Virus record (IMG/VR): IMGVR_UViG_2703718843_000010
Source of the DNA: a virus
Taxonomy: Duplodnaviria > Heunggongvirae > Uroviricota > Caudoviricetes
Length of the DNA stretch: 22,143 bases
Reading direction: 5' to 3' (one strand)
Below the pieces are notes generated by a model. The model searched no databases. It had not been told where the DNA came from and saw only the letters and a program-made list of their open reading frames with translations. Shown piece after piece: positions 2,939 through 9,550 of this stretch. Position 1 is the stretch's first letter, and each line of letters begins with the position of its first letter. The translations under genes and the position numbers were made by a program.

Positions 2939-3151
2939 ATGACCAGACGTGAACAATATAGTTTCATTTTGCATGTTCTTTTACCTGCTATCGAAAATGA
3001 AGGGTTAACCATTAAAACCCGCCGTGATGGTGAGTTAACCCTTTCTGCCAGTGGGTCTGTAGCAACCAATTTTATAAGCAATCTGCGCCAGCACTGCATT
3101 GAAGAATTGCAGCGCCCTTCTATTCCAGCTTCCCATTACGGAGTCCTATAA
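2939..3151 (+). CDS. Hypothetical small protein (70 aa) immediately upstream of dam
   Basis: ATG at 2939 with GGAGG at 8-nt spacing; its stop (3149-3151) is one base before the dam ATG. Confidence 0.5.
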   Translation: MTRREQYSFILHVLLPAIENEGLTIKTRRDGELTLSASGSVATNFISNLRQHCIEELQRPSIPASHYGVL

Positions 3152-3152
3152 A

Positions 3153-4124
3153 ATGATCCGCCCGTTCATCAAATGGGCAGGGGGTAAAACCCGTGTCCTC
3201 CCTGACCTGCTGCCGCATCTTCCTAAAGTCGACTGCCTGATCGAACCATTCGTAGGCGGTGCATCGGTATTTCTGGCGACTGAATACCGCCGCTATGTGC
3301 TGGCTGATATCAACCCAGATCTTATTAACCTGTATCGGGAAGTCACCCGTTACCCGGACTTAGTGATCGATGCGGCCCGCGAACTGTTCAACAGTAAGAA
3401 CAACCCGCAGGGATACAACGAAGTCCGCGCCGCGTTCAATAAGCAGGTGGGTACGGTAAAAAGCGGTGGGTTGCGTTATGGCGCTGAAATGGCGTGCATT
3501 ATGCGCGCTGCTCAATTCCTGTATCTGAATCGCCACGGTTATAACGGCTTATGCCGATACAGCCGGAAGACCGGCTTTAACGTGCCGTTTGGCAAGTATA
3601 AGAGCGTCTACTTTCCTGAAAATGAAATCCGCCTGTTTGCCGAAAAGGCCAACGATACAAAGGCAATATTTCTTTGCGCGCCGTTCCAGCGTTCTCTACA
3701 AGTCGTCACGGGTGGCGATGTTCTTGTTTACTGCGATCCGCCTTACCTGCCTGAAAGCAAAACAGCCGATTTTACCCAATACCACACCGAACCATTCACG
3801 GAAGACAACCACCGCCAGTTAGTCCAGGCACTGCTGGAAGTTAACCGTAAGCATGGCGTGAAGGTCGTCATTTCCAACAGCGACACCGAAGCCACCCGCG
3901 TGATTTATCAGCCCTTCAAGATGCACGAAATCAGCGTGCAACGTTCCGTCAGCACTGACAAAGACAACCGCCAGAAGGCCAAAGAAGTGATCGGCGTGCT
4001 GCCTGTCTGCGACTGCTGCGGGCGTTACGGCGGCGGTTGCCCTGATTGTGGCGCCGTGATGGGTGATGCGACTTACAACGCGATGGTTGCGGCGGGCACG
4101 TTTGACGATCTGGAGGCTTTTTAA
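3153..4124 (+). CDS. dam: DNA adenine methyltransferase, Dam family (D12 class, likely GATC), with a C-terminal cysteine-cluster extension
   Basis: N-terminal FIKWAGGK, SAM-binding EPFVGGASVFL and catalytic DPPY, with overall collinearity to E. coli Dam as remembered. Extra tail VCDCCGRYGGGCPDCG. ATG at 3153 with GGAG upstream. Confidence 0.9.
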   Translation: MIRPFIKWAGGKTRVLPDLLPHLPKVDCLIEPFVGGASVFLATEYRRYVLADINPDLINLYREVTRYPDLVIDAARELFNSKNNPQGYNEVRAAFNKQVGTVKSGGLRYGAEMACIMRAAQFLYLNRHGYNGLCRYSRKTGFNVPFGKYKSVYFPENEIRLFAEKANDTKAIFLCAPFQRSLQVVTGGDVLVYCDPPYLPESKTADFTQYHTEPFTEDNHRQLVQALLEVNRKHGVKVVISNSDTEATRVIYQPFKMHEISVQRSVSTDKDNRQKAKEVIGVLPVCDCCGRYGGGCPDCGAVMGDATYNAMVAAGTFDDLEAF

Positions 4125-4444
4125 TGGCAAAAATCTATATCGCTGGCCCGATGAGCGGTTTGCCTGGATTCAATCGGCAGGCTTTTAACCGTGCAGCCGG
4201 GCACGTAGTGCGACGCGGAAACGTTGCCCTTAATCCGGCGATTTTGCCGGATGGATTAGAGCAGGCGGAATACATGGATATTTGCTTCGCCATGTTGCGT
4301 TGTGCTGACGGGATCTTCTTGCTGGATGGCTGGCAGCAGTCTGCCGGAGCTAAGGCAGAGCACGCGCTTGCTGAAAAGCTGGGTTTAGAAATTCAGTACC
4401 AAGTAATCGATCGGTGTAGCCGAAAGGCGGAGGGGCAGCAGTGA
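4124..4444 (+). CDS. DUF4406-like protein (nucleoside 2-deoxyribosyltransferase-like fold)
   Basis: 106 aa beginning MAKIYIAGPMSG...NPAILP, the hallmark N-terminus of the DUF4406 family. ATG overlaps the dam stop (TAATG). Confidence 0.75.
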   Translation: MAKIYIAGPMSGLPGFNRQAFNRAAGHVVRRGNVALNPAILPDGLEQAEYMDICFAMLRCADGIFLLDGWQQSAGAKAEHALAEKLGLEIQYQVIDRCSRKAEGQQ

Positions 4445-5355
4445 CCGCCTACTACAACGAAATCGACCCCTTCGCCGCGCAATACCTGCGCAACCTCATT
4501 GATGCCGGGCTTATCGCTTCCGGTGTTGTCGATACTCGTTCCGTTGAGGATGTAACCCCAAATGACCTTAAAGGATTCTCACAAGTCCACCTGTTTGCAG
4601 GTTTTGGAGGCTGGCCCCGTGCTTTGCGCGTCGCAGGATGGCCGGACGACCGCCCAGTATGGACAGCAAGTTGCCCATGCCAACCTTTCAGCCAGGCAGG
4701 CGAAGGAAAACAATTTGATGATGAGCGGCACCTATGGCCCGCCGTTCATTGGCTTGCAGGCCAGCAACGCCCTGTCGTTATATTTGGCGAACAGTCTTCA
4801 AGCAAAGATGCAGAAGTCTGGATCGACCTTGTACAAACTGACATGGAAAGTTTGGGCTATGCCTTCGGGGCGTCGGCGTTTCCGTCTGCGGGCGTCGGTG
4901 CGCCGCACATCCGGGAGCGTACTTACTGGCTGGCCGACTCCAACCGCGAGCAATACGAAGAACGCTTATCAGGATGCCGAGAAGGTGATCGCCAGGAAGC
5001 TGGCTGGTCGGCAGTCGAACTTACAGGGCTTTGCTTGTCTTGCGGGTTGGCCCACCCCTGCGGCGAGGGATGGAAAGGGCGGGTATCAGGGAGGAAGGAT
5101 GCGGCACGGGAAGCTGTCAACGGATACGCTGGATGTGACAGCGCAGATAGCAGGCCCGGCCCGGTTAACGGATTCTGGGGATCTGCTGACTGGCTCCTTT
5201 GCAGAGATGGAAAGTGGAGGCCAGTTAAACCCGGCCTTAAGCCTCTGGTTGATGGGGTTCCCTCCAGAGTGGGAAAACTACGCGCCAGCGGAAACGCCGT
5301 AAATATCTATGCAGCCGCAACTTTCTTAAAAGCCTACATGGAGATCGCGCAATGA
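4441..5355 (+). CDS. DNA cytosine-5 methyltransferase (phage-type); a second long overlapping frame is described in findings
   Basis: GTG start overlapping the upstream stop (GTGA). Motif I FAGFGG, motif IV PCQPFSQAG, GEQ-type motif VI region, motif VIII GAPHIRERTYWLA, motif X GNAVN...FLKAY. Stop overlaps the gene A ATG. Confidence 0.8.
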   Translation: MTAYYNEIDPFAAQYLRNLIDAGLIASGVVDTRSVEDVTPNDLKGFSQVHLFAGFGGWPRALRVAGWPDDRPVWTASCPCQPFSQAGEGKQFDDERHLWPAVHWLAGQQRPVVIFGEQSSSKDAEVWIDLVQTDMESLGYAFGASAFPSAGVGAPHIRERTYWLADSNREQYEERLSGCREGDRQEAGWSAVELTGLCLSCGLAHPCGEGWKGRVSGRKDAAREAVNGYAGCDSADSRPGPVNGFWGSADWLLCRDGKWRPVKPGLKPLVDGVPSRVGKLRASGNAVNIYAAATFLKAYMEIAQ

Positions 5356-7757
5356 CCACGGCAACCCGTGGCCGTCGCGCCCCTTCTCCACCTCCACCGT
5401 ATCCGGGTAGCACTGACAATGCTATCCCTTACGCTTATGGCGGGAACAAACCATACCAGCCTATTGGCGTTGATGTAGCGCCGGGGCTGGATGGTTTCGA
5501 CTATCTCACGCCGGACGGCACGCGTAAGCATATTGCGTTCAGTGAACTGGTAGCGGAAGACGAAAAGCCGGAGCGCAGCAAGCTGCTGCGTCGCCGCCTG
5601 GCTTCTCTTCCGCAGTATATCCGCCGCCACTTTGCCGCGAAGCTGGATGCACTGGACGCGAAAGACCGCAAAGCGGCAGATCACTGGCTGGTTAATACAT
5701 TTGAGCGCCACGTATTAACGCGTATTGATAGCGTGAACAGTGTTTACCAGCCTGACACTGTGATGCCCGGCATTCTGCTGCCAATCCGCGATCAGCTTTT
5801 CCGTATGCTCTGGGCAGGGAAGAAAGAGTTAAAAAGACTGGCTTATACGCTTGCCGATATCTTTACGAGCGAGTTTATACGCGAGTCCGATCACCAGTTG
5901 GCACGCACCGGAGATCCTGAGTTCGCGGCGCTTTCTGGCTATGGCCGTATTGCGTCGCTGGCGGTGCATCTGAAAACGCCGATCCCTGGCTGGACGGCGT
6001 ATTGCAATGAAGAACTGGAAGCGGAGGACGCGTTACGCGCGGTTCTTCGCCTTGAGTCACCGCAGTGGTGGTTAAACCGCCTGCGCCGTATCCATGCCCG
6101 GTGGCGTGAGCATTTGATGATCGCAGCGGGATACGTCCAGAAAAAATCTTCCCCATACAGTAGCGCCCCGTGCCTTACGGAGTGGTTGGCCCAGAAAAAG
6201 GCTAACCGTGAATACCTTAAGGCTATGGAACTGGAAGACCAGGACACGGGCGAACGCATTTCACTGATCGATAAAGTCGCCGGTAGTGTTGCCAATCCGG
6301 CCAACCGTCGCCGCGAACTCATGACGAGAATGCGCGGATTTGAAGATCTGGCGAAGCTGGAAGGGCTGGCCGGTGACTTCTACACGCTAACAGCACCTTC
6401 CCGTTACCACTCCATGCAGCATAACGGGCGCCGCAATAATAAATACTGTGGCGCGTCGCCGCGCGAGACGCAGCAATATCTTTGCAAAGTCTGGGCGAGA
6501 ACCCGCGCAGCGTGGAAGAGAAAAGGGATCCGCGTCTTTGGTTTCCGCGTGGTCGAACCGCACCACGATGCAACGCCACACTGGCATTTACTTCTTTTTA
6601 TGCGCCCGGAATGCGTCGAGCAGGCGCGCGAAATCTTCCGTAAATATGCCCTGAAAGAAGACGGCAACGAACCGGGAGCGCAGGAAAACCGCTTTCAGGT
6701 TGTGCCGATCGACGATGCCCACGGCAGCGCAACCGGCTACATAGCGAAATACATTTCGAAGAATATCGACGGCTTCGCGCTGGATGGTGAGAAGGACGAC
6801 GAAACCGGGGAAGACCTGAAAGAAATGTCACTCCGCGTTAGCGCGTGGGCATCGCGCTGGGCTATTCGTCAGTTTCAGCAGATCGGCGGTGCGCCGGTCA
6901 CGGTATATCGCGAACTTCGCCGCCTGGGCGATCGCGAACTGGTGTTACACCCTGAACTGGAAACCGCCCGGCAGGCCGCTAACGGTGGCGAATGGGATAA
7001 CTACGTATTAGCCCAGGGTGGACCGTTGGTTGAGCGCGATAAGCTGCGCATCCGTCTGAATTATGAAACCACTGAAAACGGCAACGCCTACGGCGATAAC
7101 GTCCAGCGAATCACTGGTATTTACTGCCCGATTACGGGCAATGACTCTTTGATCTTCACCCGCACCACTCAATACAAAATCGTGCCGAAGCGCCAGAGCG
7201 CTGACGGTGTGGCCGTTGACGTTGGTTTTTCAGGCGGCAACGCCGCCCCTCGGAGTTCTGTCAATAACTGTACGCGGGATCCCGCGGCAGGTGCTGACGG
7301 TGTAGAACATGCCGCCAGCGAAGCTACAGGGCAGTCAGAAATGACTGAGCCAGCTGAGGGCGTGACGGTGAATTTTGATGCGCTTTCACGGCAGGAAAAG
7401 CGAGAATTGGCGCAGCGGCTCAGTGCCGATGTGCGAAGTAAGCGTAAAAAACGGCCACCGGATAGGGAAGACAGGGCCGGGCTGTCCGTGAAAGAGCAGC
7501 AGATCAGTGAACTGCTGGCGCTGCGTGGGATTGATGCCAGCGCCGGAATGGTCAGATCGATGATGGCCGGTGCGTCAGTGGCGTGCGGCGATCTTGTTAT
7601 GACCGTGCAGGACGGGCGGCTGGTGTCGCGCAATCGCGCCGCGTCGGGGATAGGTAAATTAGCAACTGAAAAAATGGCAGTTAAGAAAAAATCTGATGAA
7701 CTTCTCAATCGCTGGAAAGTGGCTGTAAAAATTAACAGGGGTAAGTTGACAAATTGA
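5352..7757 (+). CDS. A: Replication initiation protein A (rolling-circle HUH endonuclease), P2 gpA-like
   Basis: 801 aa with HUH-type motif EPHHDATPHWHLLLF and active-site tyrosine motif GYIAKYISKNIDG; collinear with remembered P2 A. Confidence 0.95.
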   Translation: MTTATRGRRAPSPPPPYPGSTDNAIPYAYGGNKPYQPIGVDVAPGLDGFDYLTPDGTRKHIAFSELVAEDEKPERSKLLRRRLASLPQYIRRHFAAKLDALDAKDRKAADHWLVNTFERHVLTRIDSVNSVYQPDTVMPGILLPIRDQLFRMLWAGKKELKRLAYTLADIFTSEFIRESDHQLARTGDPEFAALSGYGRIASLAVHLKTPIPGWTAYCNEELEAEDALRAVLRLESPQWWLNRLRRIHARWREHLMIAAGYVQKKSSPYSSAPCLTEWLAQKKANREYLKAMELEDQDTGERISLIDKVAGSVANPANRRRELMTRMRGFEDLAKLEGLAGDFYTLTAPSRYHSMQHNGRRNNKYCGASPRETQQYLCKVWARTRAAWKRKGIRVFGFRVVEPHHDATPHWHLLLFMRPECVEQAREIFRKYALKEDGNEPGAQENRFQVVPIDDAHGSATGYIAKYISKNIDGFALDGEKDDETGEDLKEMSLRVSAWASRWAIRQFQQIGGAPVTVYRELRRLGDRELVLHPELETARQAANGGEWDNYVLAQGGPLVERDKLRIRLNYETTENGNAYGDNVQRITGIYCPITGNDSLIFTRTTQYKIVPKRQSADGVAVDVGFSGGNAAPRSSVNNCTRDPAAGADGVEHAASEATGQSEMTEPAEGVTVNFDALSRQEKRELAQRLSADVRSKRKKRPPDREDRAGLSVKEQQISELLALRGIDASAGMVRSMMAGASVACGDLVMTVQDGRLVSRNRAASGIGKLATEKMAVKKKSDELLNRWKVAVKINRGKLTN
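7233..7287. other. Candidate replication origin (nick-site region) inside gene A
   Basis: Hairpin GGCGG-CAACG-CCGCC, then CCTCGGAGTTCTGTCAATAACTG, then perfect palindrome CGCGGGATCCCGCG. Encodes the AAPRSSVNNC linker that I remember as the ori-containing part of P2 A. Confidence 0.35.
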
Positions 7758-7774
7758 AAAATCTGCACCATCAT
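7746..7774 (+). promoter_or_regulatory. Candidate promoter for the cargo cassette (TTGACA, 17-nt spacer, CATCAT)
   Basis: Perfect -35 hexamer at 7746-7751 and a weak -10 at 7769-7774; a second TTGACA...TGCAC module follows 34 bp downstream. Confidence 0.3.
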
Positions 7775-7820
7775 TCTGGTTGACAAAGTTTGATATTTGC
7801 ACTCATGGAGATTTGGATTG

Positions 7821-8414
7821 ATGTCTAAGCAGCCTTTACCTTGGGACTTTCACCCACAATTAACTGAAGAGCGTTTAACAATTATTGCTAAAGAATTGTT
7901 AAGGGTCTTAAATGACACATATGCTCAACTTTCGACCACCTTGGATAACAACTATACACGTTCTACTTGTACTTTTGGTCGTCAATGGCAGTTACTTATT
8001 GATTTATGTTTGAGTGGACAGTACGACTGGCTTCATCTCACCAACGCTGGTTTAGACATCACTTTTACGATCGATACAATTCCTGTTCGTTTCTTCACTG
8101 ATGATCCGGCCAATCCTAAAAAGGATGGTTTTTATCGTCGAAATCCTGCTGATCAGCTTTTTGCTCCTGAGGTGGACATTCCCGTTTTACATCGCTTTGT
8201 TGTTGAGAAACCCGAATTTGAGGGTGAAGGCGCTAAAGTTCATTTCATTGGTTATAACGCTTTGGACGAAGAAGTATCTAAGTGGACGTACAACGATGAA
8301 CCAACAACAGCATTGTTGCACTCTACGGATGATACACCGCCAGAGTCTGTTAGAATTGAACTTGATGACATTCGCCCTTCTCGTCCCGAAAAGGAAGAAA
8401 AAGAGAGCGATTGA
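7821..8414 (+). CDS. Hypothetical protein (197 aa), first gene of the hotspot cassette; candidate effector or toxin
   Basis: ATG at 7821 with GGAG upstream. No motif I recognise; acidic, low-complexity C-terminal tail (PSRPEKEEKESD). AT-richer than the flanking phage genes. Confidence 0.6.
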   Translation: MSKQPLPWDFHPQLTEERLTIIAKELLRVLNDTYAQLSTTLDNNYTRSTCTFGRQWQLLIDLCLSGQYDWLHLTNAGLDITFTIDTIPVRFFTDDPANPKKDGFYRRNPADQLFAPEVDIPVLHRFVVEKPEFEGEGAKVHFIGYNALDEEVSKWTYNDEPTTALLHSTDDTPPESVRIELDDIRPSRPEKEEKESD

Positions 8415-8437: not shown

Positions 8438-9550
8438 GTGTTTAACGGTTCTAATTTAAGATTGGCTCGTCTGTATCACGAGCTATCACTGGAGCAAGTA
8501 GCTGAGCGGGTCGATAAGACCCGCCAGTATATTCAGCGGCTGGAATCCGGCACGGCTGTTCCAACACCCGAGCTTGCGAATAAATTAGCTGCCGTCTTGC
8601 TGGTGATGCCTCATTTTTTTGAAGAGCAATGGCAGTCTCCTGTAAATGAAGAGATCGTTCACTTCCGCAAGCGTAGTTCTACGAGAGTCGCCACAAAAAT
8701 GGCGACTCTCGCCAAAGCTGAGCTGTATCGACGACTTATTGAAATTTTTGAAGAGTATCTGGAGTTACCGCAAGTAAGATTTCCTGAACTGAAGGTGGAT
8801 ACTCAAGAGGATATCGAAAAAGCAGCGGAGAAGTGCCGGACTGATTGGGGGCTAGGTTTTGGGCCGATCGATAACATGACTCGTCTTGCTGAAAAGCTGG
8901 GAGCGTTTGTCACTTCTTTTGATTCTGTTTCTGACGATGTTGATGCTCTTTCTGTTCCTTTGAGCCGCCCATTTATCGTAAGGAATACAGCTAAAAAGTC
9001 ACCCTGCCGTCAGCGGTTTGATATCGCTCACGAGGTTGCACATTTAATTTTACATGAGGGTGTCTCTACTGGAGACAGGGCTACTGAGTCGCAGGCTAAC
9101 CGCTTCGCGTCTGCATTGCTTTTGCCAAGAACAGCTATGGCGAAATATTTTCCACGTCCGATTGGTGGTCGAATCGACTGGCAAGGTCTTAGCCAGTTTA
9201 AATTAACGTGGAAAGTGAGTAAGGCCGCGATCATTTATAGAGCACATCAACTTGGGCTTTTAACTGACGCTCAATACAAAACCGCCTTTTTTGGTCTCAA
9301 GCGAAAGGGGGAGGCTATTGATGAGAAAGAAGATTATTTGATCCCTTGTGAGAAGCCAGAACTATTCAGTAAAGCAATGAAATGCCTGTTAAATGATTTG
9401 TCCGTGGATATTGAAACATTAGCCCAGCGTTTGAGCATAACCCCTACGATGCTCGCAGAACTTGCTAATGATGACACTTTGGTTTCTGCGTCATGTGTGA
9501 ACTCTGAGAATGTAATTTCAATGTTTGCGTATCGGATGAAAACTGCTTAA
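8438..9550 (+). CDS. XRE-family HTH fused to ImmA/IrrE-type (M78, COG2856) zinc metallopeptidase, with an extra C-terminal region
   Basis: GTG start with AAGGTG at 5-nt spacing. N-terminal HTH LRLARLYHELSLEQVAERVDKTRQYIQRLESG; HExxH motif HEVAH encoded at 9029-9043 within the ImmA-like core; about 150 further residues after the core. Confidence 0.85.
   Translation: MFNGSNLRLARLYHELSLEQVAERVDKTRQYIQRLESGTAVPTPELANKLAAVLLVMPHFFEEQWQSPVNEEIVHFRKRSSTRVATKMATLAKAELYRRLIEIFEEYLELPQVRFPELKVDTQEDIEKAAEKCRTDWGLGFGPIDNMTRLAEKLGAFVTSFDSVSDDVDALSVPLSRPFIVRNTAKKSPCRQRFDIAHEVAHLILHEGVSTGDRATESQANRFASALLLPRTAMAKYFPRPIGGRIDWQGLSQFKLTWKVSKAAIIYRAHQLGLLTDAQYKTAFFGLKRKGEAIDEKEDYLIPCEKPELFSKAMKCLLNDLSVDIETLAQRLSITPTMLAELANDDTLVSASCVNSENVISMFAYRMKTA

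Follow-up and report, generated by a model that had tools for sequence, protein, structure and literature searches.

In P2-like phages (Peduoviridae) the presence of the replication origin (ori) inside gene A is established knowledge. The origin of P2 was experimentally determined at 29,892 bp and the nick sequence, with its location inside A, is conserved among Peduovirinae (PMC8537503); moreover, a Vibrio phage has an A gene with a nearly identical ori, and both tyrosines of the YxxxY motif are part of the catalytic site in P2 A (PMC3986222). In the database records, the P2 genome (AF063097) carries a rep_origin feature at 29892 inside gene A, described as 'nick site at ori', and the genome of phage 186 (U32222) carries one at 28576, 'located by similarity with P2; consistent with electron microscopy mapping'. 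The locus described here belongs to a stretch of Caudoviricetes DNA of 22,143 nucleotides (nt), the IMG/VR record IMGVR_UViG_2703718843_000010, whose whole length is referred to as the window. It contains a gene A homologue of 801 amino acids (5352..7757, + strand), a predicted rolling-circle initiator nuclease; the segment 7233-7274 within this gene is, on the strength of its homologies, very probably the place (nick site) from which a P2-like phage of the Peduoviridae starts its rolling-circle replication, lying inside its own initiator gene.

The whole segment 7233-7287 reads GGCGGCAACGCCGCC-C-CTCGGAGTTCTGTCAATAACTG-TA-CGCGGGATCCCGCG-G and codes for AAPRSSVNNCT, residues 631-641 of the 801-residue open reading frame. 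Its central element is the 26-nt ori core CTCGGAGTTCTGTCAATAACTGTACG (7249..7274, + strand), recognized by similarity to the P2 and 186 origins and corresponding to codons 633-641; the 22-nt core CTCGGAGTTCTGTCAATAACTG lies at 7249-7270 and, with one more base at its 5' side, becomes CCTCGGAGTTCTGTCAATAACTG (7248-7270). The ori DNA of 186 is GGGCGCttctGCGCCCt CTCGGAGTTCTGTCAATAACTGTACG, in which CTCGGAGTTCTGTCAATAACTG is the annotated ori core; the identity between the two phages is 22/22 over this core and continues over 26 nt (7249-7274). The P2 DNA around the annotated nick is aGCGGCatcGCCGCgc CTCG|GAGTCCTGTCAATAACTG, and 21 of the 22 core positions agree with this mapped nick site, the sole difference being T7258, which is a C in P2. 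The core also occupies an equivalent position in the gpA homologues, about 79-81% along the gene, and the window holds a single copy of it at up to 3 mismatches (no match in 100 shuffles). The original prediction had proposed a rolling-circle origin embedded in gene A in part from a resemblance to the P2 ori core; the alignment to the P2 and 186 origins gives clear similarity and supports both the resemblance and the proposal. The nick itself is predicted at TCG|GAG, between G7252 and G7253 (7252..7253, + strand), by transfer from the P2 and 186 annotations: the annotated base is the first G of the GG in P2 (29892) and the second in 186 (28576) and, as the two features mark adjacent G's, the cleavage position has been placed between them.

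The enzyme expected to act at this site is encoded by the same gene. The gene A product matches Phage_GPA (Pfam PF05840) over residues 159-474 with an E-value of 1.8e-105 and, more weakly, REP_ORF2-G2P; in alignments its identity to the A protein of Salmonella phage SEN5 is 92%, to that of 186 it is 45% and to that of P2 37%. In the four-way alignment with P2, 186 and SEN5 two elements are invariant: the HWH motif of the HUH metal-binding type (residues 410-412; 6579..6587, + strand) and the tyrosine pair Y463 and Y467 in YIAKYISK (6738..6752, + strand), predicted to be catalytic, whose equivalent motif begins at residue 450 in P2 A. EPHHD is likewise kept. Judged by its motifs, the product is an intact gpA-type enzyme with HUH and two-tyrosine elements.

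The conservation of the core was followed in 80 gpA loci taken from IMG/VR by protein similarity alone, with 39-96% amino-acid identity: CT[C/T/A]GGAGTTCTGTCAATAACTG is found at up to 2 mismatches in 79 of them, and a scan with the core pattern retrieved more than 120 viral contigs, each with one copy. In 45 main-frame genes, non-redundant at 90% amino-acid identity, all seven core codons (Ser, Ser, Val, Asn, Asn, Cys, Thr) are fixed to a single codon. The 142 other columns in which a degenerate amino acid is conserved at 90% include no such case; their mean codon entropy is 1.36 bits (core versus other conserved columns, Mann-Whitney p=4e-6). Furthermore, nine loci (L027-L035; for example L028 at 3403-3424 and L030 at 3364-3385) translate the core DNA in a different frame, giving PPLGVLSITVRG and not AAPRSSVNNCT, between flanks that are homologous as protein (YKIVP..AVD upstream and F-x-x-[ML]-x-x-x-E-[KR]-R downstream); in L028 the change of frame is explained by a 5-nt deletion upstream of the hairpin described below. 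The only variable base of the core is 7251 (C, T or A), which generates CGG, TGG or AGG and consequently a switch between Arg and Trp. Frozen synonymous codons, the alternate frame and the Arg/Trp switch together indicate that the core is constrained as DNA and not as peptide; it is a DNA site within a protein linker whose peptide sequence is unimportant, so that origin DNA can be frozen there.

Beyond these loci, a variant of the core, CTTGGACTyGTGTCAnTAACTG, is present in distant relatives, namely phages of Mannheimia, Pasteurella and Burkholderia; a more diverged version is found in a Pseudoalteromonas phage, and a core variant is also present in the inovirus VFJ. As a separate observation, in locus L062 (3232-3241) the gene of the gpA homologue breaks off within the core: after CTTGGAGTTC, unrelated DNA begins 6 nt past the predicted nick, and the upstream hairpin is absent. 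The break may mark where a rearrangement took place close to the nick, or the prophage may simply have decayed.

The second component of the locus is a G+C hairpin (7233..7247, + strand), identified by pairing and covariation, in which the arms GGCGGC (7233-7238) and GCCGCC (7242-7247) enclose the loop AAC and the 3' arm stops 1 nt 5' of the core. It had been described in the original prediction as GGCGG-CAACG-CCGCC; the hairpin is indeed present at these positions, and its stem has to be corrected to 6 bp with a 3-nt loop because C7238 pairs with G7242. Its register is fixed: a single nt separates the 3' arm from the core, and the loop measures 3 or 4 nt. In the first 83 related sequences, 33 of the 40 distinct upstream segments have 6/6 Watson-Crick pairs; in a larger set of 183 loci with 75 distinct upstream contexts, 6/6 pairs are formed in 44 and 5/6 in 15, compared with 0.11% (6/6) and 1.1% (5/6) at control positions of the same genes taken in the fixed register with a 3-4 nt loop. 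Eight different stem sequences are represented, including GGCGGC, GGGCGC, GGCCGC, GGACGC and GGCGCC, and the P2-type phages possess 5-bp versions, GCGGC or GCGCC. A minority of relatives, 13 of the 75 contexts, have at most 3/6 pairs in this register, which, like the choice of loop length treated below, weighs against the proposed origin, although several of these carry a shifted hairpin; in many contexts outside the groups with 5-6 pairs the hairpin is displaced by a base or two.

Covariation was evaluated in an alignment of 39 distinct sequences, in which 4-nt loops were trimmed by one base to align the arms before pair counting. Pairing is found in 94.9% of cells versus 77.7% in shuffles, none of 500 being as high, and slid controls are 34-73% paired; double changes, affecting both sides, occur in four of the six pairs, and the covariation score is 0.347 versus 0.082. 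Setting the loop length (3 or 4 nt) sequence by sequence biases pairing slightly upward and the sequences are mutually related, but the effect is large despite this bias and includes several independent compensatory changes. The peptides encoded by the hairpin also vary (GGNAAP, GRAAAP, GASAPS, DAPASS), which indicates that the structure and not the protein is the conserved entity. Since the hairpin co-varies across lineages, it can be assigned to the origin element, as had been proposed. When 7225-7295 is folded as single-stranded DNA, the upstream hairpin, 20 unpaired nt and a second hairpin formed by the 3' palindrome are obtained (-14.7 kcal/mol, z=-1.87), and the predicted nick and the core lie inside the 20-nt unpaired stretch between the two hairpins. 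A reading of these hairpins as an intrinsic terminator or an RNA motif was ruled out by dedicated scans: no terminator-like site is present at 7233-7287, the only one in 6900-7800 being at 7202-7218, which is no more than in shuffles, and the single Rfam match lies elsewhere at chance level (E=0.22).

On the 3' side of the core lies the perfect 14-bp palindrome CGCGGGATCCCGCG (7273..7286, without assigned strand), which as a hairpin would have a 5-bp stem and the loop GATC; the latter is a Dam site (7278..7281, likewise unstranded) located 26 nt 3' of the predicted nick. The palindrome is perfect only in SEN5, in Enterobacter phage phiT5282H and in L004, L007 and L008, and is kept at 13/14 in L005 and L006; CGCGG-gag-CCGCG or a one-base variant of it is retained in L009-L012 and L014-L015, the 3' arm is lost in L013 and L016, and P2 and 186 have unrelated 3' flanks from which the palindrome is absent. 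Perfect palindromes that measure 14 bp or more number 3 in the window, versus 1.76 +/- 1.4 expected. The 14-bp palindrome with its GATC, as pointed out in the original prediction, is therefore present, but its count is not unusual and its distribution is restricted to the closest relatives, which rules it out as an unusual or family-wide feature. In 49 non-redundant genes the 36 nt 3' of the core fold only slightly better than other stretches of their gene (the median percentile is 0.31, and 24% of them fall in the best decile). Because the palindrome is lineage-restricted and the folding of the flank only slightly better, it is treated here, from these sequence comparisons, as a lineage-specific 3' flank rather than as an element by which the origin is defined.

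In the same region, an exact 11-nt direct repeat, GCTGACGGTGT, was observed at 7200-7210 and 7293-7303, with a third partial copy at 7363-7370. The two exact copies flank the predicted nick near-symmetrically, at about 42 and 40 nt, and each encodes ADGV. Two copies are present in SEN5, L004 and L007, and the downstream one has a mismatch in L005, L006 and L008; the repeat is limited to these closest relatives and is absent from more distant loci such as L009.

Different explanations of the locus can be considered. The block could be conserved for the sake of a peptide motif that the protein needs, APRSSVNNC, in which case the DNA would be identical only as a by-product, and in fact RS.VNNC is invariant in the four-way protein alignment inside an otherwise variable region; this explanation is hardly tenable, as the seven core codons, which include 6-fold and 4-fold degenerate ones, are each represented by a single codon, unlike other conserved columns, the only variable base turns Arg into Trp and, decisively, the frame-shifted clade L027-L035 reads the core DNA as LGVLSITV between homologous flanks, which refutes a peptide motif. 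It is also very improbable that the site is a relic, left in a defective prophage or in a phage whose replication starts elsewhere: the broken gene A of L062 indicates that such relics exist, but here gene A has its full length and its catalytic motifs are intact, neither core nor hairpin shows a defect, the core is in single copy, and the window has a complete P2-like gene set and 95% identity to the isolated phage phiT5282H. With regard to the strand, the motif could be the origin and the non-coding (bottom) strand be nicked, the hairpin then lying 3' of the nick; GenBank features would allow this, since they state a coordinate and no strand, and by electron microscopy the forks of P2 and 186 reportedly move leftward, in which case the strand running leftward would be the nicked one. 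In VFJ, a single-stranded inovirus, one strand carries all annotated genes and also the homologous core motif, which is located at the rep gene's 3' end; the coding strand of inoviruses is the viral plus strand, which is nicked in rolling-circle replication. By analogy, the motif on the gene strand of VFJ, taken as the nicked plus strand, favours the coding strand here, so that the coding strand is likely the nicked one and nicking of the bottom strand is improbable. Beside the fork direction, the points that weigh against the proposed origin and its exact nick are that the annotations of P2 and 186 are one base apart, that the phosphodiester bond and the strand depend on single-base GenBank features and on reasoning from them, and that the assignment in this phage is made by homology throughout.

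A further explanation accepts the core as the origin and adds to it a functional 3' palindrome/GATC, namely a second hairpin or a Dam- or SeqA-sensitive element, through which methylation by the host or phage Dam would gate initiation. The window does encode a Dam, as had been predicted, in the form of a D12-class adenine methyltransferase gene (3099..4124, + strand; PF02086, E=1.2e-62), which is given as context only. In favour of this explanation, the stretch +22..+50, counted from the start of the core, is about 5.6-fold enriched in GATC (41 sites versus 7.3 expected in 96-97 clusters), which is there the third most enriched 4-mer after TACG, which sits in a semi-conserved TACG extension of the core, and CGGG, which overlaps the last base of this extension. 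The 40-nt bin starting at the core has the top GATC count within +/-400 nt, though 25 of its 40 nt are invariant. The core-adjacent GATC is spread over 36 distinct contexts and all three codon phases (22/15/5), often lying within small inverted repeats; the palindrome of the window folds as a second hairpin, and in L009-L012 the CGCGG/CCGCG stem is kept with a different loop. This enrichment 3' of the core is suggestive; the clusters, however, are phylogenetically related and thus non-independent, P2, whose origin was studied experimentally, has no GATC there, and more than half of the lineages lack it. Family-wide, the GATC next to the core is usually a single site, and the GATC cluster of an oriC-like origin controlled by Dam and SeqA was not found at 7233-7287, which contains one site, the nearest others being at 7151 and 7502. 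Chance alone gives about 1.8 palindromes of 14 bp per window, and the folding energy downstream of the core is weakly better than elsewhere in the gene. In particular, the link between the phage-encoded Dam and the origin GATC suggested in the original prediction finds no support in the comparison and was rejected: GATC adjoins the ori in 12 of 24 contexts with a Dam gene and in 18 of 41 without (65 distinct contexts; Fisher odds ratio 1.28, p=0.80). On balance, methylation-gated initiation through the flank is considered unlikely. GATC is also over-represented across the whole window, with 108 sites versus 81 +/- 9 in first-order Markov simulations, and gene A contains 17 of them (about 7 per kb), including the one in the palindrome; a GATC at this place is not remarkable in itself.

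The preferred reading is thus a P2-type origin with its nick on the coding strand, and a mechanism can be proposed for it from the P2 accounts (PMC8537503, PMC3986222) and from general knowledge of HUH nucleases. The gpA homologue, through HWH and Y463/Y467, would cut one strand at TCG|GAG (7252|7253), as in P2, and would join covalently to the 5' end, leaving a 3'-OH that host replication proteins could extend by rolling circle. The invariant core of 22-26 nt would be the element of sequence-specific recognition and cleavage. The 6-bp G+C hairpin would most likely form on unwound or displaced single-stranded DNA and could position the enzyme for cleavage and possibly for the closing strand transfer, in which cleavage and joining are combined. 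More tentatively, and as a possibility with less than even standing, the P2-family origin may be organized in three parts: a co-varying 6-bp hairpin that lies 5' of the core at a distance of exactly 1 nt, the core itself, which is invariant, and a fast-evolving 3' flank repeatedly selected for GATC, often in a small hairpin. If this were true, the hairpin would serve gpA as a handle for recognition on single-stranded DNA, for instance during the terminating strand transfer, and the Dam site would make origin use methylation-sensitive, for example by blocking the re-nicking of fresh hemimethylated DNA.

As regards the genomic context, the window is a segment of a P2-like phage in which integrase, repressor/cox, dam and A are followed by portal, terminase, capsid, lysis and baseplate genes, and over 82% of its length it shares 95% identity with phiT5282H (Peduoviridae, Novemvirus). 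In the record of the latter the A product is annotated as 'nicking at origin of replication', and there is no rep_origin feature. The two genes located 3' of gene A (7797-8414 and 8438-9550) correspond to RmrT (E=8.7e-92) and RmrA (E=2.8e-204), which form a defence pair in PADLOC, the RmrA match being a protein with a helix-turn-helix domain and an M78 peptidase. In the same slot phiT5282H has an AAA ATPase and an S8 peptidase; since the genes differ, the slot after gene A behaves as a hotspot of swappable cargo. Between dam and gene A (4124-5355) the window contains, relative to phiT5282H, an extra DUF4406 gene and a gene similar to C5-cytosine methylases, whose product has 53% identity over its full length to the 'DNA-cytosine methyltransferase' of SEN5; an open reading frame of 246 codons (4562-5302), with no family match, overlaps the methylase-like gene in another frame.

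Apart from the ideas on the hairpin and on GATC, the site is an expected feature of a P2-like gene A. What may be new is the quantitative covariation of the hairpin, the independence of the core from the reading frame and the enrichment of GATC beside the core. No description of these three points, of a hairpin at the P2 ori or of a link to Dam was found in the literature searched, whose scope did not extend to the original P2 papers: a review on rolling-circle replication (PMC5714925) does not mention P2, and the phage-genome papers PMC11126057, PMC5694545 and PMC3931495 contain nothing on a P2 ori hairpin or Dam. The analysis places the predicted replication origin of a phage of the phiT5282H/SEN5 type at single-base resolution and illustrates cleanly how a DNA site that acts in cis overrides the genetic code, with frozen synonymous sites and an interchangeable reading frame; the comparative data also suggest that the P2-family origin includes a co-varying hairpin and that Dam sites accumulate beside this origin.

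In comparison with the P2 ori, the locus shares the PF05840 initiator gene, the relative position within it, 21 of the 22 core bases, the HWH and YxxxY motifs and a G+C hairpin just 5' of the core. The two differ in the number of stem pairs, 5 in P2 and 6 here, in the 3' flank, which is CACCGGTG without GATC in P2 and CGCGGGATCCCGCG here, and in the proteins, which are 37% identical; in addition, the nick was experimentally mapped in P2 and is here predicted from sequence. With the 186 ori the locus has in common the 26-nt CTCGGAGTTCTGTCAATAACTGTACG and the register of the hairpin relative to the core; the stem has undergone compensatory changes, being GGGCGC/GCGCCC with a 4-nt loop in 186 and GGCGGC/GCCGCC with a 3-nt loop here, and the 3' flank consists of GCGAAAGC followed by GATCC in 186 in contrast to the 14-bp palindrome. 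The sequence GCGAAAGC, found in 186 (L002, 4601-4608) 3' of the ori core and right before the GATC, is probably the extra-stable DNA mini-hairpin motif. More distant are the filamentous Vibrio phages of the fs2/VFJ type (NC_021562), which possess a homologous gpA-like Rep with 34.7% identity over residues 240-620; in VFJ (L209, 2079-2100) the core variant CTTGGACTCGTGTCACTAACTG has the same orientation and overlaps the 3' end of the rep gene, although this phage is a single-stranded DNA inovirus, its core differs at 5 of 22 positions and its upstream inverted repeat is 17 nt away and not 1 nt. The 30-nt origin recognized by phiX174 gpA presumably shares AATAAC 3' of the nick. Finally, HUH-nuclease origins and the nic sites of relaxase oriT generally have an inverted repeat immediately 5' of the single-stranded sequence cleaved by the HUH/tyrosine enzyme. 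The likeness to relaxase oriT concerns only this geometry, with a hairpin 5' of the cleavage sequence; here the enzyme is not a relaxase, the site lies within a coding sequence and serves replication and not transfer, and no relaxase domain was found in gene A, whose sole Pfam matches are the Phage_GPA and REP_ORF2-G2P ones. The locus is not a relaxase oriT and, by analogy, appears to work like other HUH-nuclease origins.

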